Source: Alphaproteobacteria bacterium (GTDB lineage: Bacteria; Pseudomonadota; Alphaproteobacteria; UBA828). From it: a stretch of 64,000 bases of DNA. The stretch is taken from positions 2,528,001 to 2,592,000 of the forward strand of contig CBDEFM010000002.1 of NCBI GenBank assembly GCA_965237415.1, read 5' to 3'. The translations under genes and the position numbers were made by a program. A model generated the notes under the pieces. It searched no databases. It saw nothing but the letters and a program-made list of their open reading frames with translations, and was not told the origin of the DNA. Of the stretch, positions 22,703-48,655 are shown piece after piece. Every line of letters begins with the position of its first letter. The stretch's first letter is position 1.

Positions 22703-22727
22703 CCCTCCGCCCTCTCGTGCGCGGGCC

Positions 22728-24440
22728 CTAGCGCAGCATGTAACGCTGGGCGAGCGGCAGCTCGTCCGCCGGCTCGCAGGTCGCGAGCTCACCGTCGACA
22801 CGGACCTCGAAGGTCTCGGGGTCCACGCTCACCTCGGGGCAGGCGTCGTTGTGCAGCATGTGGCCCTTGGCGAGCTTGCGCGTGCCCTGCACAGGAACGG
22901 TCCGGCTCTCCAGCCCCAGCTTGCCGGCGATATCGGCATCGGCCGCCGCCTGCGATATGAAACTGAGGCTGAGCGCCTCCTTCGCCCGGCCGAAGGCGCC
23001 CCACTGCGGTCGCATCAGCACCGGCTCGCAGGTCATCAGCGAAGCGGCGCTGTCCCCCATCGCCGACCACACGATGAATCCGCCCTTGATGACCAGCTCC
23101 GGCTTGATGCCGAAGAAGGCCGGGCGCCAGAGCACGAGGTCCGCGAGCTTGCCCGCCTCCAGCGAGCCGACATGGCGGTCGATGCCGAAGGTGCGGGCCG
23201 CGTTGATGGTGTACTTCGCGATGTAGCGCTTGATCCGCTCGTTGTCGCCTTTCGCCGTCTGCTCCGATGCGAGCCGGCCGCGCTGGCCCCGCATCTTGGA
23301 CGCAAGTTGCCAAGTGCGGCAGATGACCTCGTTGATCCGCCCCATCCCCTGGCTGTCCGAACCCAGCATCGAGATCGCACCGATATCGTGCAGCACGTCT
23401 TCGGCGGCGATGGTCTGCGCCCGCACCCGGCTTTCGGCAAAGGCCACGTCCTCGGGCACCGCCGGGTTCAGGTGGTGGCAGACCATGATCATGTCGAGAT
23501 GCTCGTCGAAGGTGTTCCGCGTGTAGGGGTTGGTGGGATTAGTCGACGACGGCAGGCAGTTAGGCTCGCCGGTGATGCGGATGATGTCCGGCGCATGACC
23601 GCCACCGGCGCCTTCGGCGTGATACATGTGGATCGTGCGGCCCTTGATGGCGGCCAGCGTCTCTTCCAGAAAGCCGCTCTCATTCAGGGTGTCGGTGTGA
23701 AGCTGGACCTGGAAGTCCATCTCGTCGGCGACGCCGAGGCAGCAATCGATTGCCGACGGCATTGCGCCCCAGTCCTCGTGGATCTTGAGCCCCATGCAGC
23801 CGCCGGCGATCTGATCGACCAGCGACTGGGGCTTGGCCGAGTTACCGCGCCCGAGGAAGCCGAAGTTGATTGGCCATGCCTCGGCCGCCTGCAGCATTTT
23901 GCCGACGTTCCAGGCGCCGCCGCAGTCGATACCGACGGTGATCGGCCCGAGCGAGCCGCCCAGCATCGTCGTGATGCCGCTCGCGATGGCGTGTTCGCAG
24001 AGCTGCGCGCTGTCGAAATGGACGTGCACGTCGATGCCGCCCGGCGTCGCGATCAGCCCCTCCGCATCGCGCACGGTGGTCGCGGCACCGCAGAGCAGCG
24101 CCGGGTCCACGCCGTCCATGACCGCCGGGTTGCCGGCCTTGCCGACACCGGCGATGAGGCCCTCCTTGATCCCGATGTCCCCCTTGACGATGCCGAGCAC
24201 CGGATCGATGACGACGGCGTTGGAGACCAGCATATCCAGGGAGCCGCCGGCGCTGTCGAGCCCGGCCACGAGGCCGATGCCGTCACGCAGCGTCTTGCCG
24301 CCGCCGTGCAGGCATTCCTCGCCCGGCACGCCGTGGTCGTGCTCGATCTCGGCCAGGAGCTCGCTGTCCCCCAGCCGCACGCAATCGCCCGTCGTGGGCC
24401 CGTAGAGCGCCGCATAGTCCGCCCGGCTCATCCATGCCAT
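22728..24440 (-). CDS. ureC: Urease alpha subunit-like protein, paralog 1 (divergent pocket)
   Basis: [55 protein letters not shown]. Confidence 0.9.
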
Positions 24441-24443
24441 CGC

Positions 24444-25139
24444 TCAAGCTCCCTTGAAGCCGCGGGCGCGGGCGCGGGCCAGCGCCTCCTGCTTGACGCT
24501 TTCGGAGCGCCGCGAACCCTGGGTGAGGTCGTTGAGCCCTACCATCTCGCCGCTGCCGCCGAACTCGACGAGGGTGACCTCCTTCGTCTCCCCCGGCGCG
24601 AAGCGCACCGCCGTGCCGGCAGGGATGTCGAGGCGCATCCCGAAAGCCGCAGCGCGGTCGAAGTCGAGATGCCGGTTCACCTCGAAGAAGTGGTAGTGGC
24701 TGCCGATCTGCACCGGCCGGTCGCCTGTGTTGGTGACCGCGACAGTTGCGGTCGGCCGGCCCGCGTTGATCTCGATCTCGCCCTCGGCGGGGATGATCTC
24801 GCCCGGGCGCACGCTCTCATCCCGTGCCTTCTTTCCAGGGCGGATCGGCTCGTGGACCGTCACCAGCTTGGTGCCGTCGGGGAAGGTGCCTTCCACCTGC
24901 AGCATGGGCATCATGTCGGCGACGCCCGGCATGACATCGTCGGTGGTGAGGATGGTCGCGCCATACTCGATCAGCTCGGCCACCGAGCGCCCGTCGCGCG
25001 CGCCTTCCAGAATCTCGTCGCTGATGAGCGCCACAGCCTCCGGATGGTTTAGCGCGCGGCCCCGCGCGCGGCGCCGGCGCGCGAGCTCGGCGGCGGTGAA
25101 GATGGTGAGCCGCTCTATCTCCGTCGGTGTCAGCAGCAT
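24444..25139 (-). CDS. ureAB: Fused urease gamma-beta subunit, paralog 1
   Basis: Gamma part MLLTPTE...LNHPEA...[16 protein letters not shown] joined in frame to beta part PGEI...[19 protein letters not shown]...[14 protein letters not shown]. Confidence 0.92.
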
Positions 25140-25154
25140 CGTGGGCCACCCTGA

Positions 25155-25874
25155 TCAGTTGCTGAAGAGTCGAACCGCCGCTTCCTCGTGGCGGGCCGCC
25201 GCGACATCGGCGAGCGGCACATAGGAGCGCGCCTCATCGAGGCGAGGCGCCGGGCGGGCGAGAAGCGCCGCCATCCTGGGCCTGAGACCGCGCAGCATGA
25301 TCTGCGCGTCGAGGTGGCCGATCAAGCCGAGCCTGAGCGCCGCCCCCAGGATCGTCGCACAAAGCCCGTGCAGGCTCACCGCCTCGGCACGGTCGAGGTC
25401 GAGGCCTGAGCCGGCCAGCACCACCCCCTGCACCACGGCGAGATGGCCATGCGCCTCACCGGCACGGAGCCGCGCGCGATAGGTTTGGGCACCGGGCGTC
25501 TCCATGCGCGCGTGAACGCCGAGCAACGCAGCGCCTCCCTTGCGCGAGCCCTCGCGCAACTCGCGCGGCAGTGCCATCGCCTCCTGCAGGGCGTCGATCT
25601 CGGCGACCGCCGGCCAGTCGGGGCAGGCGCGGTGGGCGGCGGCGAGGAAGGCGCGCTCCGCCGTAGCCCAGCGATCGGTCACCTGATCGGTAAGGAACGC
25701 GTTGAGTCCGGCAGCGTCGACAACGATGCCGTCGGCATAGAGCGTCTCCAGCCCGAGCGAGAACGACACCGCGCCGCTGGGAAAGAAGCTGTCGCCGAAC
25801 TGCAGCGCCGCGAGATCGGCGGCCACGTCGCCCTGCGCCTTCGCCTTCGTGCCGCTCATGCCCGCATCACTCAA
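25155..25874 (-). CDS. ureF: Urease accessory protein UreF
   Basis: LQFGDSFFPSGAVSFSLGLE N-terminal motif and C-terminal HE...RLFSN; start may be ATG 25859. Confidence 0.85.
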   Translation of the reverse strand: MSDAGMSGTKAKAQGDVAADLAALQFGDSFFPSGAVSFSLGLETLYADGIVVDAAGLNAFLTDQVTDRWATAERAFLAAAHRACPDWPAVAEIDALQEAMALPRELREGSRKGGAALLGVHARMETPGAQTYRARLRAGEAHGHLAVVQGVVLAGSGLDLDRAEAVSLHGLCATILGAALRLGLIGHLDAQIMLRGLRPRMAALLARPAPRLDEARSYVPLADVAAARHEEAAVRLFSN

Positions 25875-26031
25875 ATCGGGGCGGCTCCCGCATCGGCTCC
25901 CGCGGCGGAAGCTCCAACACCACGTCCCCGAAGGGTTTGAAGAGCGCGTGCAGCGCCGTCCCCAGTCCCTTCGTCGGAACCGGTTCTCCCTCGACCGCCT
26001 CGGCCATATCCGATCTCGTTTCTTCTTCCAT
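25867..26031 (-). pseudogene. N-terminally eroded FitA/StbC-like antitoxin with no toxin gene
   Basis: (RS)MEEETR...KGLGTALHALFKPFGDVVLELPPREPMREPPRFE resembles the C-terminal part of FitA-like antitoxins; the RHH N-terminus is not recognisable. Confidence 0.6.
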
Positions 26032-26139
26032 CGAGCGGCACCTTACCCGCCGCTGCAAAGGCGGCGAAAGCCTGTTGTCACGGCCCGCGGCCACGGTCAT
26101 GGTCCACCCGGCAGGCACGGGCGCGAGCGGGAGGCGGGC

Positions 26140-27582
26140 ATGGCCGGGGCAGAGCAGTACGACGTCCTCTTCACGGGCGGCATGGTAATCGACGGCACTG
26201 GCGCTGCGCGCCAGCGCGCCGACGTCGCCGTCTCGGGCGATCGCATCGCCGCTGTGGGCGATCTGGCGGGGGCGGAGGCCGCGCGCACCATCGACGCCGC
26301 CGGGCGCATCGTCTCGCCCGGCTTCATCGACGCCCACACCCACGACGACAACCTGCTGCTGGTCGACCGGGACATGACACCCAAGACGAGCCAGGGCGTC
26401 ACCACGGTGATCGCCGGCAATTGCGGGGTGAGCCTCGCGCCGCTCGCGCCGGGTCGCCCGGTGCCGCCGCCGCTCGACCTGCTGGGCGGACCCGCCGACT
26501 TCCGCTATCCCCGCTTCGCCGATTATGTGGCGGCGCTCGACGCGGCCCCGCCTGCGGCCAATGCCGGCCTTCTGGTCGGCCATTCGGCGCTCCGCCTCGA
26601 CACGATGGACGACGTGGACTGCCCGGCGACGGCCAGCGAGATCGACGCGATGCGGGAGCGGCTGGCCGAGGGGATGGAAGCCGGCGCATTGGGCTTCAGC
26701 ACCGGGCTCATCTACGGGCCCAACAAGGCGGCGACCACCGACGAAGTTGCGGCCGTCGCCGAGGTCGCAGGCGCCGCCGGCGGCCTCTACGTCACCCACA
26801 TGCGCAATGAGCATGACGGCATCGAGGAGGCGATGGAGGAAGCCTTCGAGATCGGCCGCCGCGCCGGCGCCGGCGTCGTCATCTCCCACCACAAGTGCGC
26901 CGGCCGCCAGAACTTCGGGCGGAGCCGCGACACGCTCGCGCTGCTCGATAAGGCCCGCGAGCGCCAGGCCATCGGCCTCGATGTCTATCCCTACACCGCA
27001 GGCTCCACGGTGCTGCTGGCGGAGATGGTGGAGAAGGCGGAGCGGGTGATCGTCACCTGGTCCGAGCCGCATCCGGAATACGCGGGCCGCGACCTCCCCG
27101 AAGTCGCTGCCGAGTTCGGCCTCGACCCGGTCGCCGCCGTGGCGAAGCTGAGCCCGGCGGGCGGCATCTACTTCATGATGGACGAGGCGGACGTGCGCCG
27201 CATCATCGCTTATCCGCACAGTATGATCGGCTCAGACGGCCTGCCCCACGACCGCCATCCCCATCCGAGGCTCTGGGGCACCTTCCCGCGCGTGCTGGGC
27301 CACTATGCGCGCGAGCTCGGCCTGCTCACGCTGGAGGACGCGGTGCGTCGCATGACCGGGCTCACCGCCGCCCAGTTCGGCCTCACCGACCGCGGCGAGG
27401 TGCGCGCCGGCGCCTATGCCGATCTCGTGATGTTCGATGCGGAGACCATCGCCGACGAGGCGACCTTCGAGGCGCCGACCCGGCCTGCCGCCGGCATCGA
27501 TATCGTCATGGTGAATGGCGCCATCGTGCGCGAAGGGGACCGGGTCACCGGCAAGCGGCCGGGCCGGGCACTGCGACGCTAA
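26140..27582 (+). CDS. N-acyl-D-amino-acid deacylase (D-aminoacylase)
   Basis: PGFIDAHTHDD, GNCGVS, THMRNE, ISHHK, DVYPY, IGSDG, HPRLWGTFPRVLG. Confidence 0.9.
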   Translation: MAGAEQYDVLFTGGMVIDGTGAARQRADVAVSGDRIAAVGDLAGAEAARTIDAAGRIVSPGFIDAHTHDDNLLLVDRDMTPKTSQGVTTVIAGNCGVSLAPLAPGRPVPPPLDLLGGPADFRYPRFADYVAALDAAPPAANAGLLVGHSALRLDTMDDVDCPATASEIDAMRERLAEGMEAGALGFSTGLIYGPNKAATTDEVAAVAEVAGAAGGLYVTHMRNEHDGIEEAMEEAFEIGRRAGAGVVISHHKCAGRQNFGRSRDTLALLDKARERQAIGLDVYPYTAGSTVLLAEMVEKAERVIVTWSEPHPEYAGRDLPEVAAEFGLDPVAAVAKLSPAGGIYFMMDEADVRRIIAYPHSMIGSDGLPHDRHPHPRLWGTFPRVLGHYARELGLLTLEDAVRRMTGLTAAQFGLTDRGEVRAGAYADLVMFDAETIADEATFEAPTRPAAGIDIVMVNGAIVREGDRVTGKRPGRALRR

Positions 27583-27599
27583 AAACCGGCGCCGCCGGC

Positions 27600-28178
27600 T
27601 TAGATCTCGTGGCGGCCGAGCCGGTCGCGAAGCTGCTCCACGCGCCGGTTGACCCCCGGCATGTGGGGGTTGTGGACCAGCGCCCGCTCGAACGCGGCGA
27701 GCGCCTCTTCCTCGTTGCCGAGCGCGCCGTGGCAGAGGCCGAGCCCCGAGAGGGCGCCGAAGTGGCGGGGCTCACGCTTGAGCGTCTCGTCGATATCGGC
27801 GATGGAGCCCTCGTAGTCGCCCATCAGGTAGCGCAGCGTAGCACGGCGGTTCCAGCCCTCGGAGAGGTCCGGCCGGTGCTCGATGACCCCGTTGAGGATC
27901 GCGTACGACTGGTTGAAGCGACCCGTGGAGAGCGCCCTATCGCCCGCGAGGAGCATCCGGTCCATCTCTTCCGAGCCGGTATCGAACCAGTGGAACCAGA
28001 TTTGCGACTCAATCTGGCGGACCTGCTGCGGGCTCTGCGCGGATTTGAGGTCGCGGAAGAGTCCGTCCAGCGCCGGGTCGTTCTGATCGGCCAAGACCGT
28101 CCCCATAGTGCCAAGGGCGAGCAGCAGCGCGAGCGCCAATGCAGGCAGGCATCGCAGGCAGCGGCTCAAGGACACCAT
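27600..28178 (-). CDS. Exported tetratricopeptide-repeat protein
   Basis: Signal-peptide-like N-terminus; EGWNRRATLRY...EPRHFGALSGLG TPR motifs. Confidence 0.85.
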   Translation of the reverse strand: MVSLSRCLRCLPALALALLLALGTMGTVLADQNDPALDGLFRDLKSAQSPQQVRQIESQIWFHWFDTGSEEMDRMLLAGDRALSTGRFNQSYAILNGVIEHRPDLSEGWNRRATLRYLMGDYEGSIADIDETLKREPRHFGALSGLGLCHGALGNEEEALAAFERALVHNPHMPGVNRRVEQLRDRLGRHEI

Positions 28179-28463
28179 GCGCCAGCGTAAACCCGGGGCG
28201 CCCTCCGCGCCAAGCGTCTTCGTTGCCGTCTGCCTCCACGCGCCGTCACCCGTGGGCCCGGGACGCTGCCGCGCGGCATCCCGATCGGGAACGGGCAGGA
28301 ACGAGCGTCGCTCACAAATAGTTCTTGATCAATGGATTACGTGAAATTGGCTTCGTTTTGTAATTTTCCATTTTCCGTCCTCGCCTCCTTGGTCACGCTC
28401 CTCAAACAACCGGAGCCGTAAGAGGCTATAGCGGAATTCTCTCTCGGTCCTCCCAACCCTGGT

Positions 28464-29666
28464 CTATGCCGCGCTGACCTCGTGGCGCACGAGAGGCCGG
28501 TCGCGGATCGGCCAGTGCAAGCCCGCCGCCACCACGGCCAGCGCCACGGAAGTCAGCCACACCGCATCGTAGGAGCCGGTCGTGTCGTACACGTAGCCGC
28601 CGAGCCAAGCGCCGAGGAAGGAGCCCACCTGGTGGCTCAGGAAGACGATGCCAAAGAGCGCGCCCAGATAGCGCGGCCCGAAGATCTGGGCGATGAGGCC
28701 GCTGGTAAGCGGTACGGTGCCGAGCCAGAGCAGGCCCATCAGGGCGGAGAACACCAGCACGCTCGCCTCGCTCACCGGCACCACGATGAAGCCGCCGAGG
28801 ACCACCGCGCGGCCGAGGTAGAAGAGCGAGAGCACGTGCTTCTTGCGGTGCCGGCCGCCGAGCCAGCCGGCGGCGAAGGTGCCGACGATATTGCCGAGCC
28901 CGATCACGGCGATCGCCGTCGCCCCCAACATCGGTGCAAGGCCCGCGTCCGTCAGGAACGGCGGCAGATGAGTGGCGATAAAGTAGACGTGGAAGCCGCA
29001 GACGAAGAAGCCACCGCAGAGCAGCCAGAAGCCGCTGTGGGCGCGGGCCTCGACCAGTGCCTCGCTTAGCGTCTGGGCGCTGCCCTCTGGCGGCGTGTGG
29101 CTGCCGCGCATGCCGATCAGGCAGGGCACCATCATCGCCGCTATCCCGCAATAGGCGATGAGCGTCATCGACCAGCCGACGCCGTCCAGCAAGACGCCGC
29201 CGACCGGGGCGAGCGCGAACTGCCCGAAGGAGCCGCCGGCCGCCGCGATGCCGAGCGCCATGCTGCGCTTTTCCGGCGGCACCGCACGCCCCACCGGGCC
29301 CAGCACCACCGCGAACCCGGTGGCGCTGATGCCGATCCCCACCAGCAGGCCCTGGCCCAGATGCAGCCCAAGCGCGCCGTCGGTCGATGCCATCCAGAGC
29401 AGACCCGCGACATAGACCACGGTCCCCAGCAGGACGACCCGTATCGCCCCGTGGCGGTCGGCGAGCGCGCCGAAGAAAGGCTGGGTGATCCCCCAGACGA
29501 TGCCCTGAATTGCGATGGCGAGCGCGAAGGTCTCGCGCGATATGCCGAGATCGAGGCTCATCGGCGTGCCGAAGAGGCCGAAGCTTGAGCGCAGCCCGTT
29601 GCTGATGCTGAGCACCAGGGCCGCGCCGAGAACGAGCGCGATCACGCCCGCGGCGGGCCGGCTCAT
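28464..29666 (-). CDS. MFS transporter
   Basis: About 12 TM helices; motif A GALADRHG; GFFVCGFH; SHQVGSFLGAWLGG. Confidence 0.9.
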   Translation of the reverse strand: MSRPAAGVIALVLGAALVLSISNGLRSSFGLFGTPMSLDLGISRETFALAIAIQGIVWGITQPFFGALADRHGAIRVVLLGTVVYVAGLLWMASTDGALGLHLGQGLLVGIGISATGFAVVLGPVGRAVPPEKRSMALGIAAAGGSFGQFALAPVGGVLLDGVGWSMTLIAYCGIAAMMVPCLIGMRGSHTPPEGSAQTLSEALVEARAHSGFWLLCGGFFVCGFHVYFIATHLPPFLTDAGLAPMLGATAIAVIGLGNIVGTFAAGWLGGRHRKKHVLSLFYLGRAVVLGGFIVVPVSEASVLVFSALMGLLWLGTVPLTSGLIAQIFGPRYLGALFGIVFLSHQVGSFLGAWLGGYVYDTTGSYDAVWLTSVALAVVAAGLHWPIRDRPLVRHEVSAA

Positions 29667-29720
29667 GCGCCTGCTCTCCCAGCCGACGGGGCCGGGTGCC
29701 AAATGAATGCCATTGCAACC

Positions 29721-31025
29721 TCAGCTCTGGCGCGCCAGCGCTCGCCCCAGGATCGCGACGGCGCGATCGATCTGCTCATCGCTGGTGCAGAACGGCGGCA
29801 CGAAGCGGAGCACGTTGCCGTGCTGGCCCCGCACCGAGAAGAGGAGTCCGTCGGCGAGGCAGTCGCGGTAGATCTCCTTCGCCTCCCCGCTTGCGGGTTC
29901 CTTGGTGGCACGGTCGCGCACCAGCTCGACCCCCTGCAGGCAGCCCTTCCCACGAAGGTCGCCGATCATGGGGAAGCGCTGCTGCAGGCTCTCCATGCGC
30001 GCGCGCCAGTGGGCGCCGATCGCGCGGGCGCGGGCCGGCAGGTCCTCGGCCAGGATTTCCTCGAGGCTGGCCAAGCCGGCCGTGCACGCGATGGGATCGG
30101 ACGAATGCGAATGGCCGAAGGTGAGTCCGCCCTCCAGCGCGCGCTCGGCGATGTCGTCCGTCGTCACCATGGCGCTGATCGGCAGGCCCCCGCCGAAGTG
30201 CTTGGACAGCGTCATGATGTCCGGCACCACGCCATGCTGCAGATAGGCGTAGAGGGTGCCGAGCTTGCCGAGCCCGGTTTGCGCCTCGTCCAGGATGAGG
30301 AGCGCGCCGCGCGCCGCGAGCCCCGCCTTGAGCGCCTTGAGGTAGCCGGGCGGCATCTCGATCACCCCGCCCGCGCTGATGACCGGCTCGGCGATGACTG
30401 CCGCCAGATTGTTCGGGCATTCGCGGTCGAGCAGGTCGAAGGCGATGCTCAGCAGCGGCGCCCACCAGTCGTCGCCGTCGGCGCCGACCGGCGAGCGGTA
30501 GGCGTAGGGCGCCGGGATCGCGTGCAGATCGGGGATCGGCGGCCCGTGCCCGCCGGCCGCTGCGGCGAAGCTCATGGCGCGGGTCACGTCGGTATAGCCG
30601 TGGAAGCTCAGATGCAGCGCGCCGATGCCGCTCCGCCCGGTCGCGCGCCGGGCGAAGAGCACCGCCGCCTCGTTGGAATCGGCGCCGGACTGGATGAAGA
30701 GCGAACGGCTGAGCGGCGCATCGAAGGTCTCCGCCAGCCGCGCAGCGAGGCGGAGCTGCGGCTCGTTAAAGTATACCGAGCTGGCATGGGTCAGCCTGCC
30801 GAGGCCGTCCTGCACCGCTTGGGTCACGCGCGGGTTGTTATGGCCGAGCGCCGAGCACATCTGGCCCGAGTTGAAGTCGAGATAGGCCTGGCCTTCGGAA
30901 TCGAAAATCTCGGCGCCGTCGGCGCGGACGAAGACCGGCCCGTCCGCGGCCGGAACCACGTCCGAGAGCAGCTCGCCCTGGATCAGATGACGCGCGCCGG
31001 CCGCGCGCAGCGCCGCGATGTCCAC
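29721..31025 (-). CDS. Class-III aminotransferase resembling 2,2-dialkylglycine decarboxylase
   Basis: DFNSGQMCSALGH, SGADSNEAA, AEPVISAGG, LDEAQTGLG, TLSK. Confidence 0.85.
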   Translation of the reverse strand: MDIAALRAAGARHLIQGELLSDVVPAADGPVFVRADGAEIFDSEGQAYLDFNSGQMCSALGHNNPRVTQAVQDGLGRLTHASSVYFNEPQLRLAARLAETFDAPLSRSLFIQSGADSNEAAVLFARRATGRSGIGALHLSFHGYTDVTRAMSFAAAAGGHGPPIPDLHAIPAPYAYRSPVGADGDDWWAPLLSIAFDLLDRECPNNLAAVIAEPVISAGGVIEMPPGYLKALKAGLAARGALLILDEAQTGLGKLGTLYAYLQHGVVPDIMTLSKHFGGGLPISAMVTTDDIAERALEGGLTFGHSHSSDPIACTAGLASLEEILAEDLPARARAIGAHWRARMESLQQRFPMIGDLRGKGCLQGVELVRDRATKEPASGEAKEIYRDCLADGLLFSVRGQHGNVLRFVPPFCTSDEQIDRAVAILGRALARQS

Positions 31026-31059
31026 CGTTACCTCCCTTGCGGAATTGTCGAGCGCGATC

Positions 31060-31090
31060 CTAGAGCGTTTCCGTTTAACACGGAAACGCT
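31060..31090. repeat. Palindromic hairpin repeat (family B, CTAGAGCG-type)
   Basis: CTAGAGCGTTTCCGT-TTAAC-ACGGAAACGCT; near-identical to 40434-40468. Confidence 0.8.
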
Positions 31091-31095
31091 GTCGC

Positions 31096-31378
31096 CCGGA
31101 ATTCTCGCCACGGTCGCGGTCAGGTTCCGCGTCCCACCTCGGGCAAACATAATTTTCAAGCGGGATTCGCTGGGATTAAGTGGGATAAGTGGGATTCCGG
31201 GGGGCTGGTAGCCCCGGCGCAGAAAGCGACCCTGGTGAGAATTGCGGGCAATGCCGCCTTCCGTGCTTTGTTCGCTCTCGCGCTGCGGTGCGCGGATACG
31301 CGCGCGGGAATATGATCGGCACATGCCGCGATCGTGGCGCGGAAGCCGCACACCTTGCATCGCACCATGGGCCGGGGG
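31096..31378 (+). repeat. Dispersed intergenic repeat (family A) with a 4x GGGAT phased array
   Basis: 31160-31197 matches 50738-50775 at 37 of 38 nt; 31274-31378 aligns with 50885-50988. Confidence 0.85.
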
Positions 31379-31475
31379 CCGGGAGGGCCGGACGCGCGCC
31401 TGAGAAAATGCTGGGCGTGCGCTCAGGCCGCACTGGCCAAAGCCCGACCGTCCCCGACCACAGAGAAAATCCGGG

Positions 31476-35183: not shown

Positions 35184-35201
35184 GGCGATGCTCCGTCGGG
35201 G

Positions 35202-40427: not shown

Positions 40428-40433
40428 CTCAGA

Positions 40434-40758
40434 CTAGAGCGATTCCGTTTCACACGGAAACGCTCTAGCAATAAGGCTTATCCCCTTGGCTCCGGGAGCG
40501 CATGATGTTGCGTGCCTTCCCACTGCTGGAAGGCCCGGATAAGGCACGGGCTGCGCTGTGATTTTCTGAGTCCGCCGGCTGAAACCGTTGCATTGCGTAG
40601 GTCAATATCTAGACGAACCGGAAGCAAGGGGATAAGCCTTCTAGCAATTTATCGCTCACGGCAGCCGGCCTGCGACCGGCGCCTCCGCGAGGGCACCGCA
40701 GGAGCGGCGGGCCGCGGTCGCGGCCTGTCGCGCGTCCGTCTAGACGGACGCGCTCTAA
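40434..40758. repeat. Family B palindromic element (two hairpins) interrupted by a MITE
   Basis: Left hairpin CTAGAGCGATTCCGT/ACGGAAACGCTCTAG at 40434-40468; perfect 24-bp palindrome GCGCGTCCGTCTAGACGGACGCGC at 40730-40753 followed by TCTAA. Confidence 0.75.
40473..40640. mobile_element. MITE, 168 bp, with 23-bp terminal inverted repeats and an 8-bp target site duplication
   Basis: AAGGCTTATCCCCTTGGCTCCGG (40473-40495) vs CCGGAAGCAAGGGGATAAGCCTT (40618-40640), 21 of 23 complementary; CTAGCAAT directly flanks both ends (40465-40472, 40641-40648). Confidence 0.85.
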
Positions 40759-40759
40759 T

Positions 40760-41857
40760 TCAGATCACCCGCTCGCTCTCCGGATCGACGAGCACGGCCC
40801 GGTTCATGTCCAAATCGAGCGCGAGCGAATCCCCCGGCTGCTCGGCGGCGGAGCCGTCCAAGCGCACGAGCATCGAGGTCTTGCCGAGGTGGAAGTTGAC
40901 GAGCGTGTTGGCACCCATGGGCTCGACAATCTCGACGGTGGTCGCGAGCCGCGCGCAGTCGGGCCTGGGCGTCTCGCCCTCGGCCCGGTACATGTGCTCG
41001 GGCCTGATGCCCAAGAGCACGTCGCGGCCGCCGTCGCCGGCGTAGCGCGCCGCCCGCTCCGGCGGCAGGGCGAAGGCATGGTCACCGGCCCTCACCGCGG
41101 CCGCGCCGTCCGCCGCCTCGATCAGTGCCGTGGCAAAATTCATCGCCGGCGAGCCGATGAAGCCCGCGACGAAGCGGGTCGCCGGCCGCTCGTAGAGCTC
41201 CAGCGGCGGCCCCTCCTGTTCGATCTGGCCGTCGCGCAGCAGCACGATCCTGTCGGCGAGCGTCATCGCCTCCACTTGATCGTGGGTCACGTAGATCATG
41301 GTCCGCTGCATGTCCTGATGCAGCCGCTTGATCTCGGTGCGCATCTCGTCGCGCAGCTGGGCGTCGAGGTTGCTGAGCGGCTCGTCGAAGAGATAGAGCT
41401 TGGCGTCCCGCACCAGCGCGCGGCCCATGGCGACGCGCTGGCGCTGGCCGCCGGAGAGCTGGCGCGGCTGGCGCTCGAGCAGGTCCGCAATCCCCAGCAT
41501 CGTGGCCGCCCGCTCCACCCGCGGGCGAACCTCGGCGGTGGCCGTGCCCCGCATCCGAAGCCCGAAGGCCACGTTCTCGAACACCGACATGTGCGGGTAG
41601 AGCGCGTAGTTCTGAAACACCATGGCCACGTCCCGGTCCTTTGGCCGGACGTCGTTGACCACCGCGCCATCGATCTCCACCGTGCCCTCGGTCACCTCCT
41701 CCAGGCCTGCGATCATGCGCAAGAGCGTGCTCTTGCCGCACCCCGACGGCCCCACCAGCACGGTGAAGGCGCGGTCCGGTATCTCGATATCCACACCGCG
41801 CACGGCATGAACCTTGCCGTAGCGCTTGTGCACGCCGCGCAGCCTGACTCCGGCCAT
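40760..41857 (-). CDS. Carbohydrate ABC transporter ATP-binding protein (MalK/UgpC-like)
   Basis: GPSGCGKS, VFQNYALYPHM, LSGGQRQR, DEPLSNLD. Confidence 0.95.
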   Translation of the reverse strand: MAGVRLRGVHKRYGKVHAVRGVDIEIPDRAFTVLVGPSGCGKSTLLRMIAGLEEVTEGTVEIDGAVVNDVRPKDRDVAMVFQNYALYPHMSVFENVAFGLRMRGTATAEVRPRVERAATMLGIADLLERQPRQLSGGQRQRVAMGRALVRDAKLYLFDEPLSNLDAQLRDEMRTEIKRLHQDMQRTMIYVTHDQVEAMTLADRIVLLRDGQIEQEGPPLELYERPATRFVAGFIGSPAMNFATALIEAADGAAAVRAGDHAFALPPERAARYAGDGGRDVLLGIRPEHMYRAEGETPRPDCARLATTVEIVEPMGANTLVNFHLGKTSMLVRLDGSAAEQPGDSLALDLDMNRAVLVDPESERVI

Positions 41858-41867
41858 CGCGCTCCTC

Positions 41868-42743
41868 CTACCCCTTGACCGCGCCCATGGTGATCCCGCG
41901 CACGAGGAAGCGCTGGAGCGTCGCCACCGCGAAGAACACCGGCAGGGTGCCAAGCACCGAAAGCGCCGCGATCTTCGCCCAGAATGTCGACTGGGCGCCG
42001 TAATAGTGGGTGACCAGCACGGGGAAGGTCAGCACTTCGTGGCGCGTCAGAATCAGCGCGAAGACGAACTCGTTCCACGCGAAGATGAAGGTGAACACCG
42101 CCGTCGCGAAGATGCCGGTGCGCGCCATCGGGAACACGATCTTGCGCAGCGCCTGCCAGCGCGAGCAGCCGTCGGTCAGCGCGCTCTCCTCCACCTCGAC
42201 CGGGATGTCCTCGATGTAGCCGCGCATCATCCAGATCACGTAGGGCAGATTGAACGCGATGTAGAGCAGGATCAGCCCGACGTAGCTGTCGATCCAGCCG
42301 AACCAGACGAACAGCAGGAAGATCGGGAAGACGATGACGATCGGCGGGATCATCCGCTGCGAGATGATCCAGATCGCGAGGTTCTGGCCGCCGGTCTTGA
42401 AGCGCGCGAGGCTGTAGGCAGCCGCGGTGCCCAGCACCATGGCAACGACGGTCGAGACGCTGGCGATGATGAGGCTGTTGTAGATCGCCCAGACGTCGCC
42501 GTCTTTGAACAGGATCCCGAAGATGCGGAAGTTCGGCTCGTTCGGGAACCAGACCGGCGGGCGGGCGAAGATATCGCCCGCCGATTTGATCGAGGTGATG
42601 AAGAGCCAGTAGACGGGGAAGAGGAAGATCACCAGCACCACGAGCGCAATCAGGAAGCGCCAGGTCATGCGCCGGCGCTCGCGGGTCAGCCAGCGCGGCC
42701 ACATGCTGGTTCGGGTGGGGGCAGGTGTGTCGGACACCGTCAT
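41868..42743 (-). CDS. Carbohydrate ABC transporter permease (MalG-like)
   Basis: EAA loop EESALTDG; FIFAWNEF. Confidence 0.9.
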   Translation of the reverse strand: MTVSDTPAPTRTSMWPRWLTRERRRMTWRFLIALVVLVIFLFPVYWLFITSIKSAGDIFARPPVWFPNEPNFRIFGILFKDGDVWAIYNSLIIASVSTVVAMVLGTAAAYSLARFKTGGQNLAIWIISQRMIPPIVIVFPIFLLFVWFGWIDSYVGLILLYIAFNLPYVIWMMRGYIEDIPVEVEESALTDGCSRWQALRKIVFPMARTGIFATAVFTFIFAWNEFVFALILTRHEVLTFPVLVTHYYGAQSTFWAKIAALSVLGTLPVFFAVATLQRFLVRGITMGAVKG

Positions 42744-43654
42744 CGGGCGATCTCCACCCGCTTGAGCGCGAAAATGACGATGATCGAGAGCAGGATGATC
42801 ACCAGGAAGGCGATCGCGCCCGCATAGCTCGTCTCGAACTCCTTGAAGGCCCGGATGTAGGTGTAGATCGAGATCGTCTCCGTCATCGTGCCGGGGCCGC
42901 CCTTGGTCATCGCCCAGATGATGTCGAAGATGCGGAAGAGATCGAGCGCACGGATCAGGATGGCGATGACGAGCACCGGCTTGATGACCGGCAGCGTGAT
43001 CCTGAAGAATATCTTCCAGAACGAGGCGCCGTCGATCTCAGCCGCCTCGATCAAGCTGCGGTCGACGTTGGAGAGCGCGGCCAGCAGGATCAGGAACATG
43101 AACGGCGTCCACTGCCACACCTCGCAGACCAGGATCGCGGGATAGACCCATTCCGGCCGCGACAGCCAGAGGATCGCCATCGGGTCCGACGAGAACCAGC
43201 CGATGATCTGGTTGATCGGGCCGTACTGGTTGTCGAACATCAGCCGCCACGTGGAGCCTGCAACGATCGGCGAGATGACGGTCGGGATGATGAGAAGCGC
43301 GACGAACACCTGCTTGAGCGGCATCTTTTCCAGGAAGAGCTGCGCCATGAGGAGGCCCAGCACCAGCTCGATGGGGAGCGCGATCGCCAGGATCAGGAAG
43401 GTGTGGCCCATCGATTCCCAGAGCCGCGTGTCCGAGAAGAGGGCCGCGTAGTGCTTGCCGCCGGACCAGGAGGTGTCCTCGGCCAGCATGGTGATGTCCT
43501 GGAAGCTGACGATACCGGTGTGGATAATCGGGTAGAGGCCGACCAGCAGGAGCACGATGATCGACGGCGCGATCACCAGCCACTTGAAATGCCGGTCGGC
43601 GAAGAGGTTCGCGCGGTGGCCGAAGTGCGGGCCCCGGCCCGCGGCGACCGTCAT
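42740..43654 (-). CDS. Carbohydrate ABC transporter permease (MalF-like)
   Basis: WQWTPF, EAAEIDGAS, TKGGPG. Confidence 0.9.
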   Translation of the reverse strand: MTVAAGRGPHFGHRANLFADRHFKWLVIAPSIIVLLLVGLYPIIHTGIVSFQDITMLAEDTSWSGGKHYAALFSDTRLWESMGHTFLILAIALPIELVLGLLMAQLFLEKMPLKQVFVALLIIPTVISPIVAGSTWRLMFDNQYGPINQIIGWFSSDPMAILWLSRPEWVYPAILVCEVWQWTPFMFLILLAALSNVDRSLIEAAEIDGASFWKIFFRITLPVIKPVLVIAILIRALDLFRIFDIIWAMTKGGPGTMTETISIYTYIRAFKEFETSYAGAIAFLVIILLSIIVIFALKRVEIAR

Positions 43655-43919
43655 CCGCAGGCTTTCACCGGCGGTCCGCCACCGACGTCAGCAACCGCAC
43701 CCGCCATGCCGTTCCCGTCCATGCCGGCCCGCCGCGTTCCTTCCGCACAGCCTTGAGAGGTAACGGAAATGCCGCCACGGCGCAACGTTCGCCGTGACAC
43801 TGGGGCGACGCATGATCGACCATCGGCATGGCGCTCGCTTGCGCGTAAGATGCGCCGGCAATCGGAACGGCGGGGCTCCTGCATGAGCAGGGGCTGTGCG
43901 TAGAATGGGAGTGTGAGCG

Positions 43920-44369
43920 ATGAGGCAGATCGGCTACGCCATGCAGTTCAGAGGGTCCGCCGGGCCGCAGGAGGGCAAGGAGAACGAGCTCTGGGCCAAG
44001 ACGGGCTCGACCACGATGCGGCTATCGACCTCGCTCGATGCGGGCGGGCCGCAGGTCTCTATGGAGGACGCGACCGAGCAGCGGGCGTCGTTCACTTCGA
44101 ACGTCCAGACGCTCGAGGATGGCGAAGTCACCGAGGACGGGACCATCGATTTCGGCGAGGCCGGCACGCTCGATTTCAGCACCATCGGGACCGGATGGAT
44201 GGGTCCGAGCGCAATTGACGGGCTCACTCACGGCGGGATCAGCTGGCGGGTCGACGGCGGCACAGGGCCGCTAGAGGGTGCAAGCGGGATCATCACCTCC
44301 AACTTTACCGTCTCGGGGTCGGGCGAAGTCGCCGACAACCAGTGGGGCGTCATCTACGTCAAGGACTGA
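43920..44369 (+). CDS. Hypothetical acidic, probably all-beta protein
   Basis: Clean 149-aa ORF with host-like GC-ending codons; C-terminal VDGGTGPLEGASGIIT. Confidence 0.7.
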   Translation: MRQIGYAMQFRGSAGPQEGKENELWAKTGSTTMRLSTSLDAGGPQVSMEDATEQRASFTSNVQTLEDGEVTEDGTIDFGEAGTLDFSTIGTGWMGPSAIDGLTHGGISWRVDGGTGPLEGASGIITSNFTVSGSGEVADNQWGVIYVKD

Positions 44370-44374
44370 CGCGC

Positions 44375-45085
44375 GTGCAGGACGGCACCGCCCGACAGAG
44401 TGCGAATGGCGTGAGCCGCCGCAGCCCCCGGCCGAAAGACGCTGCTACGTTGGTTCTCTTGCGCGAGGGCAGGGGTGGGCCCGAGGTCCTGATGGGCCGC
44501 CGCCCCCGCCGCCAGGTGTTCATGCCCGGCCAGTACGTGTTTCCGGGCGGCGGCGTCGAGCCCTGCGATCGCTGGGTCCGCCCGGCGACGGAGCTCAGGC
44601 CCGGCGTGGCCGCACGGCTTGCGCGCTCCGCTTCGCCTGCGCGCGCCCGCTCGCTGGCTGCTGCGGCCGTGCGCGAGACCTTCGAGGAGACAGGGCTCGC
44701 CCTCGGTCTGCAAGCGCCGGCGGCAAACGGCCGTCTCCGGCCCGAATGGCAGGCCTTTCACGCGACCGGCCTGGCACCCGCCCTCGACAAGCTCGACTAC
44801 ATCTACCGCGCGGTCACGCCGCCGGGGCTGCCGCGGCGCTTCAACGCACGGTTCTTCCTGGCCCGCGCGACCGACGCGTCGGGGACGCTCGGCAGCAACG
44901 GCGAGCTACTCGATCTCGGCTGGGTGCCGGTGACGGAGGCCATGGGCTTGCCGATCCCCTACATCACCGCCGTCGTGCTGGAGGAGCTCGAGCACATGTA
45001 CGCTTCGCCCCCCGATCCCGATAGCGACCGGCCCGTGCCGGTCTGCATCCGCGTGGGGCGGGACCACGTCCACAGCCACGAATAG
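44375..45085 (+). CDS. NUDIX hydrolase
   Basis: KDAATL, YVFPGG, AAVRETFEETG, RRFNARFF; start uncertain. Confidence 0.85.
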   Translation: MQDGTARQSANGVSRRSPRPKDAATLVLLREGRGGPEVLMGRRPRRQVFMPGQYVFPGGGVEPCDRWVRPATELRPGVAARLARSASPARARSLAAAAVRETFEETGLALGLQAPAANGRLRPEWQAFHATGLAPALDKLDYIYRAVTPPGLPRRFNARFFLARATDASGTLGSNGELLDLGWVPVTEAMGLPIPYITAVVLEELEHMYASPPDPDSDRPVPVCIRVGRDHVHSHE

Positions 45086-45106
45086 CGGTCACGGGCGGCG
45101 GACCGA

Positions 45107-46120
45107 CTACTCCGCCGAAACCCTGACCAGCAGCTTGCCGAAGTTGCTGCCGTCGAAGAAGCGCTGAAACGCCGCGGGCGCGTTCTCGAGGCCGTCCACG
45201 ATGTCCTCCTTGAAGGCGAGCCGGCCTTCCCCCAGCCAACGGGCGAGGCGCTTGCGCGCGTGCTCGTAGTGCGCGCCGTAGGAGTAGATGTTGAAGCCCT
45301 TCACCTCGGTCTCGGTGAAGAGGATCGGCGCGAGATGGCTTGCGACCCTGGGCGGCTCGGTCGCGTTGTAGTGGGAAATGCCGCCGCAGATCACCACGCG
45401 GGCGCCGTGAGCGAGCAGGGGATAGATCGCATCGCCGATAGGCCCGCCGACATTCTCGAAGTAGACGTCGATGCCATCGGGGCACGCCGCGGAGAGGGCT
45501 GCGGGCAGATCGTCGGTATGCCTGTCGATGGCCTCATCGAAGCCGAGCTCTTGCGCGAGATAGCGCAGCTTCTCCGCCCCGCCGGCGATGCCGACGACCC
45601 TGCAGCCCGCGATCTTCGCCACCTGGCCTGCGACCGCACCGACCGCGCCCGACGCCGCCGAGATGACGACCGTATCGCCGGGCGCGGGCCGGCCGACCTT
45701 GACGAGCCCGAGATAGGCGGTGAGCCCCGGCATGCCGAGCACGCCGACGGCCGTCGACAGCGGCCCCAGCGCCGGGTTCACTTTGCGCGCCTCTGCGCCC
45801 TGCGCGATGGCGTAGTCCTGCCAGCCGGTGTAGTCGTCGACGATATCGCCGGGTGCGAATTTCGGGTGCCGGCTCTCCACCACCCGGCTAACCGCGCCCC
45901 CCACGATCACGTCGCCGAGCGGGATCGGCGGGTAGTAGCGGAGGTCCGTGCCCATCCTGAGCCGCATGTAGGGGTCGAGGGAGAGCCAGATCGTCCGCAC
46001 TAGCAGCTCGCCCTCTGCCGGCGTCGGCACCGGCCCCTCGACGAGGCGGAAATCCGTCTCCTTCGGCGGCCCCACCGGGCGCGCGGCGAGCGCGATCTGG
46101 CGGTTGGTGTTGGCTATCAT
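45107..46120 (-). CDS. NADP-dependent oxidoreductase (CurA/prostaglandin reductase-like MDR)
   Basis: [38 protein letters not shown]. Confidence 0.9.
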
Positions 46121-46245
46121 CGGCGCCGCTCCCTCTCTCCCTCCCCTCGAGTCTATGCGACCCGCGGTCGGCAGCAAATTCGGCTGTCTTCAGCGCGCTC
46201 CGGCGACTACTCTTTTCCGACGACGCAAGAGGGAGACGACGGCCG

Positions 46246-46941
46246 ATGAACCTCACCCCGACAGAGCAGGAGCGGCTCACCATCTTCACTGCCGCCCAGC
46301 TTGCGCGTGAGCACAAGCGCCGCGGCATCAAGCTCAGCCACCCGGAAGCGATCGCCTATATCTGCGACGAGCTCCTGATGTGTGCGCGCGAAGGTCGCAC
46401 CCTCAAGGACCTTATGGGCTATGGCGCGGAGATCCTCACGTCGGACGACGTGATGCCGGGCGTGCCGGAGCTGATTCCGGTCATCCATGTCGAGGCGGTG
46501 TTCCCGGACGGCGCCAAGCTCATCACCGTGCACCAGCCGATCCGCCCGGGCACGGCGGAGAGCCCGCCCAGCCCCCGCGCCGGCGAGATCATCACGCCGG
46601 ACGAGGAGATCGAGCTGAACGCAGGCCGGAGGACCGGATCGGTGGCGGTCACCAACACCGGCGACCGCCCGGTCCAGATCGGCAGCCACTTCCACTTCTT
46701 CGAGATCAACCGGGCCCTCGACTTCGATCGTCAGGCGACCTTCGGCATGCGCCTCGACATCCCGTCCGGCACTGCCGTGCGCTTCGAGCCCGGGCAAGAG
46801 AAGGAGGTCGCGCTGGTGGAGATCGGCGGCCGCGGCCGGGTCACCGGCTTCAACTCCCTCACCGAGGGCATGATCGATTCGCCCGAAGTCAAGGATCAGG
46901 CGATCGCCCGCGCGAAAGCGGGCGGCTTCCGGGGAGCGTAG
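46246..46941 (+). CDS. ureAB: Fused urease gamma-beta subunit, paralog 2
   Basis: [11 protein letters not shown]...LSHPEA...[13 protein letters not shown] joined to [19 protein letters not shown]...[17 protein letters not shown]. Confidence 0.92.
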
Positions 46942-46945
46942 GCAG

Positions 46946-48655
46946 ATGGTGAAGATCGCACGCGAGACCTATGCCCGCTACTACGGGCCGACCAAGGGCG
47001 ACAAGATCCGACTCGGCGATACCTCGCTGATCGGCGAGATCGAGCACGACCACACCACCTACGGCGATGAGTGCTGGACCGGCGCCGGCCGCGTGATGCG
47101 CGACGGCATGTCCTACGACGCCCATACCTCCGCAGCCGACGGCGCCATCGACATGCTGGTCGAGAACGCGACCGTCATCGACCCCGTGCTCGGCCTCGTG
47201 AAAGCCGACATCGGCATCAAGGACGGCAAGATCGCGGGCGTCGGCAAGGCCGGCAATCCCAACACGCAGGACGGGGTGGATTCGAACCTCGTCTGCGGCC
47301 CCAACACCACCTACTACCCGGCCAGCGGCCTTATCGTGACGCCGGGCGGCATCGACGTGCACGTCCACTGGTTGTCGGCGGACCAGTGCAACCACGCGCT
47401 GGCGAGCGGGCTCACCACCATGATCGGCGGCACCATGGGACCGCTCTTCGCCATCGACTGCGGCGGCCCCTGGAACACCTACCGGATGCTGGAGGCATCG
47501 GAAGCGTGGCCGATCAATTTCGGCTTCTTCGGCCGCGGCTCGTCCCACGATCCGGCGACCATCGTCGAGCATCTCGACGGCGCCATCATCGGCGTCAAGA
47601 TCCACGAGGACTACGGCGCCATGCCGGCCACCATCGATGCCTGCCTGCGCGCCTCCGCCGAGCACGATTTCCCGGTCCAGATACACACTGACACGCTGAA
47701 CGAGTCCGGCTTCTACGAAGACACGATGGCGGCGATCGCAGGTCGCACCATCCACATGTACCACACGGAAGGCTCCGGCGGCGGCCACGCGCCGGACATC
47801 ATCCGCTGCAACGGCGAGCCCCACTGCCTGCCGTCGTCGACCAACCCGACCAACCCCTACACGGTCAACGTCTTCGACGAGCAGCTCGACATGACCATGG
47901 CCTGCCATCTGCTGCGCTACGACCTGCCGGAAGACGTGGCCTTCGCCGAGAGCCGGGTGCGGCACGGCACCATCGCGGCCGAGGACGTGCTGCACGACAT
48001 CGGCGCGGTCTCGATGTTCGGCTCCGACAGCCAGGGCATGGGGCGGATCAACGAGGTCATCACGCGCTGCTGGCAGCTTGCGAGCAAGATGCGCGACCAG
48101 CGCGGGCGGCTACCTGAGGAGACCACCGCCGACGCCGACAACGAGCGCATCAAGCGCTATATCGCGAAATACACCATCAACCCGGCGATCGCCTTCGGCG
48201 TCGACCAATACGTGGGCTCGCTGGAGCCCGGCAAGATGGCCGATCTCGTCACCTGGAAGCCCGCCTTCTTCGGCATCAAACCCTTCGGCGTCATCAAGGG
48301 CGGCTTCGTCGCCTGGGGCCAGAGCGGCGATCCCTCCGGCAGCTACTTCCAGACCGAGCCGGTCATCATGCGGCCCCAGTTCGGCCATCACGGACGCGCG
48401 CCGGCGACGCTGAGCGCCGTCTTCGCGCATCGGCGCGCGCTCGATATCGACGTGCCCGGCCGCATCGGCCTGAGCAAACCGATCCTGCCGATCGGGAGCT
48501 TCACCAAGCTCACCAAGAAGGACATGCTGCACAACGACGCCTGCCCCGACATCCGCGTCGACTCCCAGACCTTCGAGGTCTTCGTCGACGGGACGCTGGC
48601 GGCCTGCGAGCCGATCGACAAGATCACCCTCGGCCAGAACTACCTGCTGCGCTGA
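46946..48655 (+). CDS. ureC: Urease alpha subunit-like protein, paralog 2 (more divergent pocket and flap)
   Basis: [56 protein letters not shown]. Confidence 0.9.

Follow-up and report, generated by a model that had tools for sequence, protein, structure and literature searches.

Two divergent urease-like enzymes of an alphaproteobacterium as candidate nickel hydrolases of small amides or urea analogues

Introduction

Two urease-like enzymes are encoded in a 64,000-nucleotide stretch of an alphaproteobacterial genome (C2:2528001-2592000, hereafter the window), each as a catalytic alpha subunit (alpha 1 and alpha 2) behind its own fused gamma-beta subunit, and both belong to a lineage that is sister to the canonical ureases. 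We propose, with a probability of about one half, that both pairs are nickel-dependent hydrolases whose substrates are small amides or analogues of urea, in place of urea or in addition to it. We favor this reading because the importer pockets encoded beside the lineage are remodelled, its operons are wired with AmiR and AmiE, it coexists with canonical ureases, and the changes at the two elements said to hold urea's second NH2 are strictly conserved. Both enzymes are almost certainly active nickel hydrolases with urease chemistry; intact genes, conserved catalytic residues, a separate clade and the wiring in other genomes are shown directly, and nickel loading, mechanism and, above all, substrate are inferred.

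Urease is a textbook enzyme, and ureC commonly serves as a marker of urea turnover, in soils and oceans as well as in guts and sponges. The lineage described here is large, horizontally spread and annotated as urease, and is found in about 17 of the 113 UreC-bearing genomes of one alphaproteobacterial sample. If its members in fact hydrolyse other small amides, conclusions drawn from ureC would be overstated for the taxa that carry it, and a new nickel-enzyme activity would come to light. If they are plain ureases, the pocket loop and the Ala363 position would not be required in their canonical form, and it would remain to be explained why two complete maturation sets that cannot stand in for each other persist in many genomes.

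Both alpha subunits keep the urease metal centre and share altered pocket motifs

The initial annotation of the window had described two intact alpha subunits, each behind its own fused gamma-beta gene, with a complete urease metal centre and remodelled pocket motifs. Pfam and NCBIfam scans of the open reading frames (ORFs) bear out both gene pairs with exact coordinates (Table 1), and Pfam assigns to both alphas only Urease_alpha and Amidohydro_1, with no nitrilase-superfamily or FmdA_AmdA fold. The two alphas are 64% identical. HMMER aligns alpha 1 end to end with Klebsiella aerogenes UreC (1ejw_C) at 702.9 bits, and we estimate their identity from the printed alignment at about 57%. We tabulated 14 metal and catalytic columns against 1ejw_C: the HxH pair, the carbamylated Lys, His219, Asp221, His246, His272, the His of GGGH, Cys319, His320, Arg336, Asp360, Ala363 and Met364. 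Both alphas read HHKHDHHHCHRD across these columns. Every metal-centre residue is retained in both, as are the catalytic and substrate residues His219, Asp221, His320 and Arg336; the sole difference, in a MAFFT alignment, is the replacement of Ala363 by Gly in both alphas.

The pocket motifs are altered in the way the initial annotation had read them. The pocket loop, 20 residues long in K. aerogenes, is shortened to 17 in alpha 1 (a net three-residue deletion) and 16 in alpha 2, and DSQAMGR becomes DSQGMGR in both alphas (HMMER and MAFFT alignments). EVKFGGGK becomes ECLHGGGK in alpha 1 (HMMER) and ECWTGAGR in alpha 2 (MAFFT), and NASIPTPQP becomes AASLMTCEP in alpha 1 (HMMER) and SGSYFQTEP in alpha 2 (MAFFT). 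Across 159 alpha ORFs from fetched loci, a recognizable short loop always occurs with DSQGMGR and a long canonical loop always with DSQAMGR, leaving aside ten ORFs without a loop match to our regular expression and five in which the DSQ pattern matched elsewhere. Because the short loop and DSQGMGR are always coupled, these changes are not chance drift. At a 90% consensus, only nine columns separate the short-loop and canonical groups, and these include the loop deletion and A363G.

The changes persist over long distances. The 17-residue loop of alpha 1, or a one-letter variant of it, is present in the sequences of its own subclade (W1), and this subclade keeps MGDSAASL[MY]TCEP and a 15-residue motif across alpha-, beta- and gammaproteobacteria. 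We take the backbone carbonyls of Ala167 and Ala363 to be contacts of the urea NH2 groups in urease. As foreseen, automated annotation names both proteins urease: both pass the NCBIfam urease equivalog model TIGR01792 (812.5 and 737.6 bits, cut-off 680), so that pipelines, and database names, call them 'urease subunit alpha'.

The two alphas belong to a sister lineage of canonical ureases

We built an IQ-TREE phylogeny of 58 UreC rows (quick search, LG+C20), from which 21 ligand-less or fragmentary representatives had been dropped beforehand; the tree is midpoint-rooted, with no inferred root and no call on the ancestral state. The 17 canonical A363 rows form a single clade, with a support of 99 by the Shimodaira-Hasegawa-like approximate likelihood-ratio test (SH-aLRT). 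The alpha 1 group (W1, 19 rows; SH-aLRT 97) and the alpha 2 group (W2, nine rows; SH-aLRT 99) together make one clade of 28 rows (SH-aLRT 100), in which both alphas group with members from Pseudomonas, Acidithiobacillus, Aminobacter and Methylophaga. Position 363 is Ala in 17/17 canonical rows and Gly in 28/28 W1 and W2 rows. The distinct clade that had been predicted is thus present in the phylogeny: both alphas lie outside the canonical clade, in two separately supported groups. We conclude that this lineage ('ure2'), marked by a fused gamma-beta subunit, a short pocket loop and Gly at the Ala363 position, is old, widespread, horizontally spread and sister to canonical ureases, not nested within them. 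Outside both clades in the midpoint-rooted tree lie deeper lineages (P0128, P0132, P0140 and P0150) that combine a short loop and Gly363 with a complete set of metal ligands. For deep outgroups only, we used a search of representatives at 50% identity; ureases are too alike at this level, and the search collapses the clade into canonical clusters.

The clade includes no solved structure: the highest-scoring chain is that of K. aerogenes, at 702.9 bits within the canonical range, while clade members in the class-wide sample score about 800 bits or more; here the K. aerogenes motifs were read directly and the other solved ureases were judged by score. Targeted searches of the openly accessible literature found no characterized clade member, and papers on Nitrospirales, Methylobacter and M. 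smegmatis contain nothing on the clade. The clade is not wholly new. In the accessible part of a 2008 paper (PMC2492869), a fused ure(AB)C group of Bradyrhizobium BTAi1, Pseudomonas syringae B728a and Streptomyces is already set apart from typical ureases by a tree and cluster maps, with no functional test in that part; what is new here is the genomic wiring.

Relatives of alpha 1 are numerous, with 80 loci in other genomes at 78-99% identity, among them Acidithiobacillus ferrianus, several Pseudomonas species, Stutzerimonas stutzeri and Salinisphaera orenii; the same loop is found in the relatives from P. syringae, P. congelans and P. cedrina, at 78-79% identity. Alpha 2 has relatives of at least 79% identity only in related alphaproteobacterial metagenome-assembled genomes. 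Its relatives at 62-67%, in Aminobacter, Labrys, Hyphomicrobium, Mesorhizobium and Methylophaga, are placed with alpha 1 by the tree. In the class-wide sample of 401 alphaproteobacterial genomes, the roughly 17 carriers have a UreC at least 61% identical to alpha 1, and at least seven of the 17 lack any other kind of UreC; in this sample, identity alone cannot separate canonical matches from those of the W3 type, described below. Cultured genomes show both situations. Acidithiobacillus, two Pseudomonas species and Stutzerimonas stutzeri each have one canonical and one short-loop alpha, and in Labrys sedimenti and Aminobacter aminovorans a canonical alpha is accompanied by two non-canonical ones. 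Of the ten cultured genomes examined, three (S. orenii, Methylophaga sulfidovorans and Hyphomicrobium sp. GJ21) have a short-loop alpha only.

Binding proteins beside the clade have lost the urea-contact signature

Clade operons of other bacteria include a Urt-like ABC importer, and we compared the pockets of the encoded binding proteins. According to the available excerpt of PMC10392092, urea is contacted in Prochlorococcus UrtA by Trp120, Ser122, Tyr141, Gln144, Glu146, Tyr190, (Phe192), Asn246 and Ser274, and we mapped these columns through the printed alignment to 7s6e. Beside canonical ureases, the full urea signature WSYQEYYNS is present in 38/39 binding proteins, made up of 3/3 and, in a control of 80 canonical loci of which 36 have a binding-protein gene within 10 kb, 35/36. 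Beside short-loop alphas, by contrast, none of 46 binding proteins keeps Trp120, Asn246 or Ser274, and in 43 of the 46 Gln144 is replaced by Phe, Tyr, Trp, Leu or Val.

The signatures that take its place include YSYFEYWVA, YSYYEYWVA and YTWWEYFVT. They are close to the YSYPEYYVT found at the same columns of Pseudomonas aeruginosa AmiC, an acetamide sensor (1pea). In the P. veronii amiE-fmdA cluster, the binding protein has WSYFEYWVS at these columns and shares Gln144Phe and Asn246Val with short-loop operons; the P. veronii strain with this cluster grows on acetamide and formamide, and its transporter is suggested to take formamide, as stated in the portion of PMC13209695 at hand. In the genome of the window, no protein reaches the NCBIfam cut-off for UrtA (highest score 410.5, against 492.75). 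Amide-type signatures are present in all five of its top-scoring UrtA-like proteins, and it encodes an AmiE.

Clade operons are wired with amide-system genes

We clustered the neighbours of the alpha genes over 154 loci and then annotated the families, with ORFs called by a heuristic of our own that missed some high-GC genes. In beta- and gammaproteobacteria, the operon runs binding protein, urtB, urtC, urtD, urtE, sometimes AmiE, ureE, ureF, ure(AB), ureC, ureG, ureD, and sometimes ends with a CbbQ-type AAA protein and a 766-residue VWA protein. In Rhizobiales and methylotrophs, an AmiR antiterminator (AmiR_N and ANTAR domains) stands ahead of the binding protein. The order ureE-ureF-ure(AB)-ureC-ureG-ureD is typical of other genomes, and the window clusters deviate from it: they comprise only ureF-(AB)-C and (AB)-C-ureD, with UreE and UreG elsewhere and no adjacent importer.

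Tblastn searches of 146 short-loop and 91 canonical loci show that these companions are largely confined to the clade. AmiR was found beside 19/146 short-loop alphas and 0/91 canonical ones, AmiE beside 24/146 and 1/91, the CbbQ-type AAA protein beside 23/146 and 0/91, and the VWA protein beside 21/146 and 0/91; AmiE beside the clade reaches 716 bits (cut-off 427). FmdA, for which displacement by the clade had been considered, is rare beside both kinds of urease (1/146 and 1/91), so its mutual exclusion says little and we set the idea aside.

The accessory genes are equally specific. With the clade's UreE, UreF and UreD as queries, tblastn found matches at 84, 104 and 107 of the 146 short-loop loci and at 1, 1 and 3 of the 91 canonical loci, which points to accessory proteins strongly diverged from their canonical counterparts.

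The genome carries a third urease-type operon and a scattered second accessory set

The genome of the window (4.75 Mb, about 69% GC, two contigs) has a third urease-type operon at C2:1859053-1864449, outside the window. Its printed translations read as separate ureA and ureB, followed by ureC, ureE, ureF, ureG, ureD and a His-rich membrane protein, and its UreC, UreD, UreF and UreG also have family matches. The alpha of this operon (W3) has the short loop GGGSGPKTVGIECPG, reads DSQGVGR, and carries an Asn where GGGHAPD has its His; the same motifs are kept by relatives that bear the names Roseovarius, Pontibaca methylaminivorans, Mycobacterium sp. and others, and W3 is a long unplaced branch in our tree. 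A canonical-loop alpha is absent from the genome, in which the three PF00449 matches above the cut-off are alpha 1, alpha 2 and W3.

There are two genes each for UreD, UreF and UreG. The second UreG lies at C2:3327013-3327600 (238.9 bits, cut-off 204.2), and a 176-residue ORF beside it is a putative UreE by its position and length. The second accessory set is scattered, with UreF in cluster 1, UreD in cluster 2, and UreG and the UreE-like ORF at C2:3.327 Mb.

Relation to known ureases and amide systems

The window enzymes share fold family, length and domain order with K. aerogenes UreABC (PDB 1ejw), and both need genes of the UreD/E/F/G type. They differ in that the gamma and beta subunits are separate in K. 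aerogenes and fused in the window, in that the K. aerogenes loop is three residues longer where alpha 1 reads TVGIDCGG, in Ala363 against Gly and in further motifs, and in falling into a separate clade. Fusion alone does not define the clade: Helicobacter pylori UreAB is also a fused gamma-beta chain, whose model NF010592 matches the window's fused subunits below its cut-off, and the H. pylori alpha-equivalent chain aligns with alpha 1 at 658 bits, in the canonical range. The clusters that Contreras-Rodriguez and colleagues (PMC2492869) report for P. syringae B728a (Psyr_2197), Bradyrhizobium sp. BTAi1 and Streptomyces coelicolor/avermitilis have fused ureAB, as in the window. We infer that they belong to the same clade from relatives at the species level, not from the named strains themselves. 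Compared with them, the window clusters have lost a contiguous ureE/ureG and the importer.

AmiE, AmiR and an AmiC-like pocket are common to clade operons elsewhere and to the amide systems of P. aeruginosa (amiEBCRS) and of Methylophilus methylotrophus and P. veronii (fmd/ami), and the CbbQ-type AAA protein of clade operons presumably has an AmiB-like role. The hydrolases of the amide systems belong to the nitrilase superfamily (AmiE) or are of the FmdA type and use no nickel, whereas in the clade a urease-fold nickel enzyme replaces or joins AmiE. Any likeness to aliphatic amidase or formamidase would be functional, not familial. Jack bean urease itself reportedly acts on formamide, acetamide and N-methylurea, as the title of a 1980 report by Dixon and colleagues has it.

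Weighing substrate assignments

Both enzymes are most likely matured by a second, lineage-specific accessory set, made up of UreF from cluster 1, UreD from cluster 2, and UreE and UreG encoded about 0.75 Mb away. By the most likely, urease-type mechanism, a hydroxide bridging two nickel ions would attack the nickel-bound carbonyl, and the flap residue His320 would protonate the leaving NH2, while the part of the pocket that holds urea's second NH2 in urease would have been rebuilt. The substrates would be formamide- or acetamide-like primary amides or N-substituted ureas, imported and sensed by amide-type (AmiC/FmdD-like) systems, and some urea activity may remain.

In a stronger form of this proposal, which we consider doubtful, the short-loop lineage would not be urease at all; it would use nickel to hydrolyse small amides or N-alkyl ureas. 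Its activity might be that of a formamidase or acetamidase, or of an N-methylurea hydrolase releasing methylamine; the latter idea would fit the presence of the lineage in methylotrophs and, in a few loci, its neighbours of N-methylglutamate-pathway type. The longer loop and Ala363 of canonical urease would in that event mark one specialized branch of a larger and more diverse nickel amidohydrolase family.

The alternative that survives best, and that we hold to be possible though not favored, is that both enzymes are true ureases, an isozyme lineage that acts on urea and differs in regulation, kinetics or assembly. Amide-type neighbours would then reflect a shared regulon that scavenges small amides and urea, as in Methylophilus fmd. 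Much of what weighs against amide hydrolysis speaks for such isozymes. The catalytic apparatus is complete, with all residues known to matter for urea hydrolysis kept, both enzymes pass the urease equivalog cut-off, and the clade comes with UreDEFG genes of its own. Presumably, the two Ala contacts are made by the backbone, which Gly can also provide, so that Gly need not abolish contacts to urea; the reshaping of the pocket is itself a prediction from sequence alone. The permease and ATPase genes of clade operons exceed the UrtB-E equivalog cut-offs, and despite its altered pocket the clade binding protein exceeds that of UrtA (TIGR03407; 538 bits, cut-off 492.75). Arginase-family enzymes usually release urea, and genes of this family lie beside the clade in four loci (L026, L028, L030 and L121). 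A short-loop alpha as the only UreC, as in the three cultured genomes and at least seven class-sample carriers above, also fits plain urease. The related Methylophilus importer FmdDEF carries urea as well as amides, according to the review PMC10781810. Moreover, the wiring argument is borrowed from relatives 62-82% identical to the window enzymes, neither window cluster has an amide importer, AmiR or AmiE alongside, and the neighbour counts come from loci that are related and partly spread by transfer, and are thus not independent.

Against an isozyme lineage stand the complete loss of the urea-contact set from binding proteins beside the clade, as opposed to its near-universal retention beside canonical ureases, and the enrichment of AmiR, AmiE, CbbQ and VWA genes beside the clade only. 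Pseudomonas and Acidithiobacillus keep a canonical urease too, which argues against redundancy. In S. orenii, the single canonical UrtA, with the full urea signature, adjoins urea carboxylase and allophanate hydrolase, not the short-loop ureC. Finally, the loop deletion and the Ala-to-Gly change are strictly conserved at elements said to hold urea's NH2 groups.

A more specialized role for one of the two enzymes appears improbable: alpha 1 may have been recruited in the alphaproteobacterial lineage to a ureide- or creatinine-type pathway together with a co-transcribed deaminase-like amidohydrolase, with N-methylhydantoin or a substituted urea, for example N-carbamoylsarcosine, as the substrate. 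In 14 loci of alpha 1's lineage, ureC is immediately followed by the deaminase-like gene; some relatives have an isochorismatase-family hydrolase next, plus an amidase-signature enzyme (L014, L022 and L073) or a soxB-family gene (L024 and L025), and translations of ORFs adjoining the second UreE/UreG pair resemble hydantoinase A/B. However, the deaminase-like protein stays below every NCBIfam cut-off (PRK05985, 263 bits; cytosine deaminase PRK07572, 232 bits), the neighbours differ among loci, and enzymes from operons of quite another make-up share 78-88% identity with alpha 1, which argues for a common substrate. The known N-methylhydantoin route, moreover, is not known to need a urease-like step.

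Least probable by far is that one copy, or both, survives as a decaying or non-catalytic duplicate without function after accessory-gene loss, as the split of the accessory genes over three loci and the existence of urease-like proteins without metal ligands (P0134, P0160 and P0167) might suggest, since both copies have intact frames with every ligand kept and a third-position GC (0.90 and 0.93) like that of other ORFs passing the coding filter, both paralogues are conserved at 93-99% identity in more than ten related genomes, and RNA-library contigs from four runs in two studies match parts of the genes for alpha 1 and gamma-beta 1 at 92-99% likeness. Contig depth over these two genes is similar to that over neighbouring genes; the contigs tell neither strand nor level and may stem from carried-over DNA, so they give no more than a hint of transcription.

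Gene clusters of the window

Table 1. Features of the two urease-like gene clusters; positions refer to the window
Feature	Position	Strand	Evidence or remark
Cytosine-deaminase-like amidohydrolase, directly downstream of alpha 1	21476..22801	-	Pfam Amidohydro_3, Amidohydro_1
Alpha 1 (P0001), 570 aa, W1-type short-loop/Gly363 urease-like enzyme	22728..24440	-	
Alpha 1 Gly365 codon	23346..23348	-	Equals K. aerogenes Ala363; DSQGMGR
Alpha 1 shortened pocket loop codons, residues 161-177 (17 aa)	23910..23960	-	HMMER alignment to 1ejw_C
Fused gamma-beta subunit 1 (P0003), 231 aa	24444..25139	-	Pfam Urease_gamma (residues 1-99), Urease_beta (112-208)
UreF accessory gene, head of cluster 1	25155..25874	-	Pfam PF01730 UreF, 107 bits; one of only two UreF in genome
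Divergent Amidohydro_3 protein (D-aminoacylase-like), start uncertain	25849..27582	+	Pfam PF07969, 140 bits; NCBIfam PRK09061, 198 bits, below cut-off
Fused gamma-beta subunit 2 (P0004), 231 aa	46246..46941	+	Pfam Urease_gamma and Urease_beta; NF009671, 337.8 bits
Alpha 2 (P0002), 569 aa, W2-type short-loop/Gly363 urease-like enzyme	46946..48655	+	
Alpha 2 shortened pocket loop codons, residues 161-176 (16 aa)	47426..47473	+	
Alpha 2 Gly364 codon	48035..48037	+	DSQGMGR
UreD accessory gene, closing cluster 2	48664..49521	+	Pfam PF01774, 135.7 bits; one of two UreD in genome

The nearest protein relatives of the window genes are from alphaproteobacterial (Rhodospirillales-like) metagenome-assembled genomes, and some sequencing runs that contain the stretch are labelled sponge metagenome. 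An actinomycete origin, considered at first because of the 69% GC, was rejected on account of these relatives. Gamma-beta 1 matches NF009671, 'bifunctional urease subunit gamma/beta', at 368.8 bits (cut-off 243). The order ureF - ure(AB) - ureC is conserved in close relatives (e.g. L005-L008, L014, L018 and L019), and the D-aminoacylase-like Amidohydro_3 family adjoins cluster 1 in 16 related loci. As listed, the deaminase-like ORF overlaps alpha 1 by 74 nucleotides; its real start is probably further downstream, with a span of about 21476-22700.

Further observations in related loci and in the genome

A few clade loci may point toward methylamine metabolism. In L036, L046 and L067, a type III glutamine-synthetase-family gene (TIGR03105, 642 bits) and glutamate-synthase-like pieces adjoin short-loop ure genes, in a layout that looks like the N-methylglutamate route for methylamine. 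In L078, L146, L147 and L150, the region a few genes upstream of ureE-F-(AB)-C encodes a 605-residue protein whose C-terminal domain resembles that of the N,N-dimethylformamidase beta subunit (PF20254, 304.7 bits); an AmiC-like/AmiR pair separates this gene from the ure genes in L146, L147 and L150, with soxB/D/A-family genes downstream. Since gmaS-like (type III glutamine synthetase), mgs-like and soxBDA-like genes occur near the clade in only about 12 loci, we regard the methylamine link as a lead, not evidence.

The arginase-family genes are paired in L026 and L030 and are preceded there by an extra ureG-like gene, and we take them to recall nickel-dependent arginase-family hydrolases. A guanidine link was considered and rejected: the window contains no riboswitch or other Rfam family at threshold, and in eight related loci the only matches were a livK motif in L075 and antisense '5_ureB_sRNA' matches that reflect coding conservation. 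The Rfam livK motif, at L075:1143-1225 (+) and mirrored at 777-861 (-), scores 78.9 and 82.4 bits against a gathering score of 65; it immediately precedes the gene for the amide-type binding protein in the P. cedrina ure2 operon and could be a cis-regulator of that operon.

The 50% representative library also contains full-length urease-alpha-like proteins without most or all metal ligands (P0134, P0160, P0161, P0167, P0181, P0191 and others). Some retain a long GGGTGP-type loop, and these proteins may be pseudo-enzymes.

Elsewhere in the genome, translations show a hydantoinase-like and an amidase-like ORF upstream of the third operon, and, in C2:3327013-3333680, an acyl-CoA-synthetase-like ORF and two hydantoinase/oxoprolinase A/B-like ORFs adjoining the second UreG/UreE-like pair. 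Within the window, a MalK-type ABC ATPase and two permease genes at 40760-43654 (-) have a first-position GC of 0.53-0.54, markedly below that of their neighbours, and a third-position GC of 0.94-0.95, above it. Cluster 2 is followed at 49889-54511 (+) by genes for an OmpR-type response regulator, a HAMP histidine kinase and a DegP-type protease; their order is kept in the closest relatives of alpha 2.

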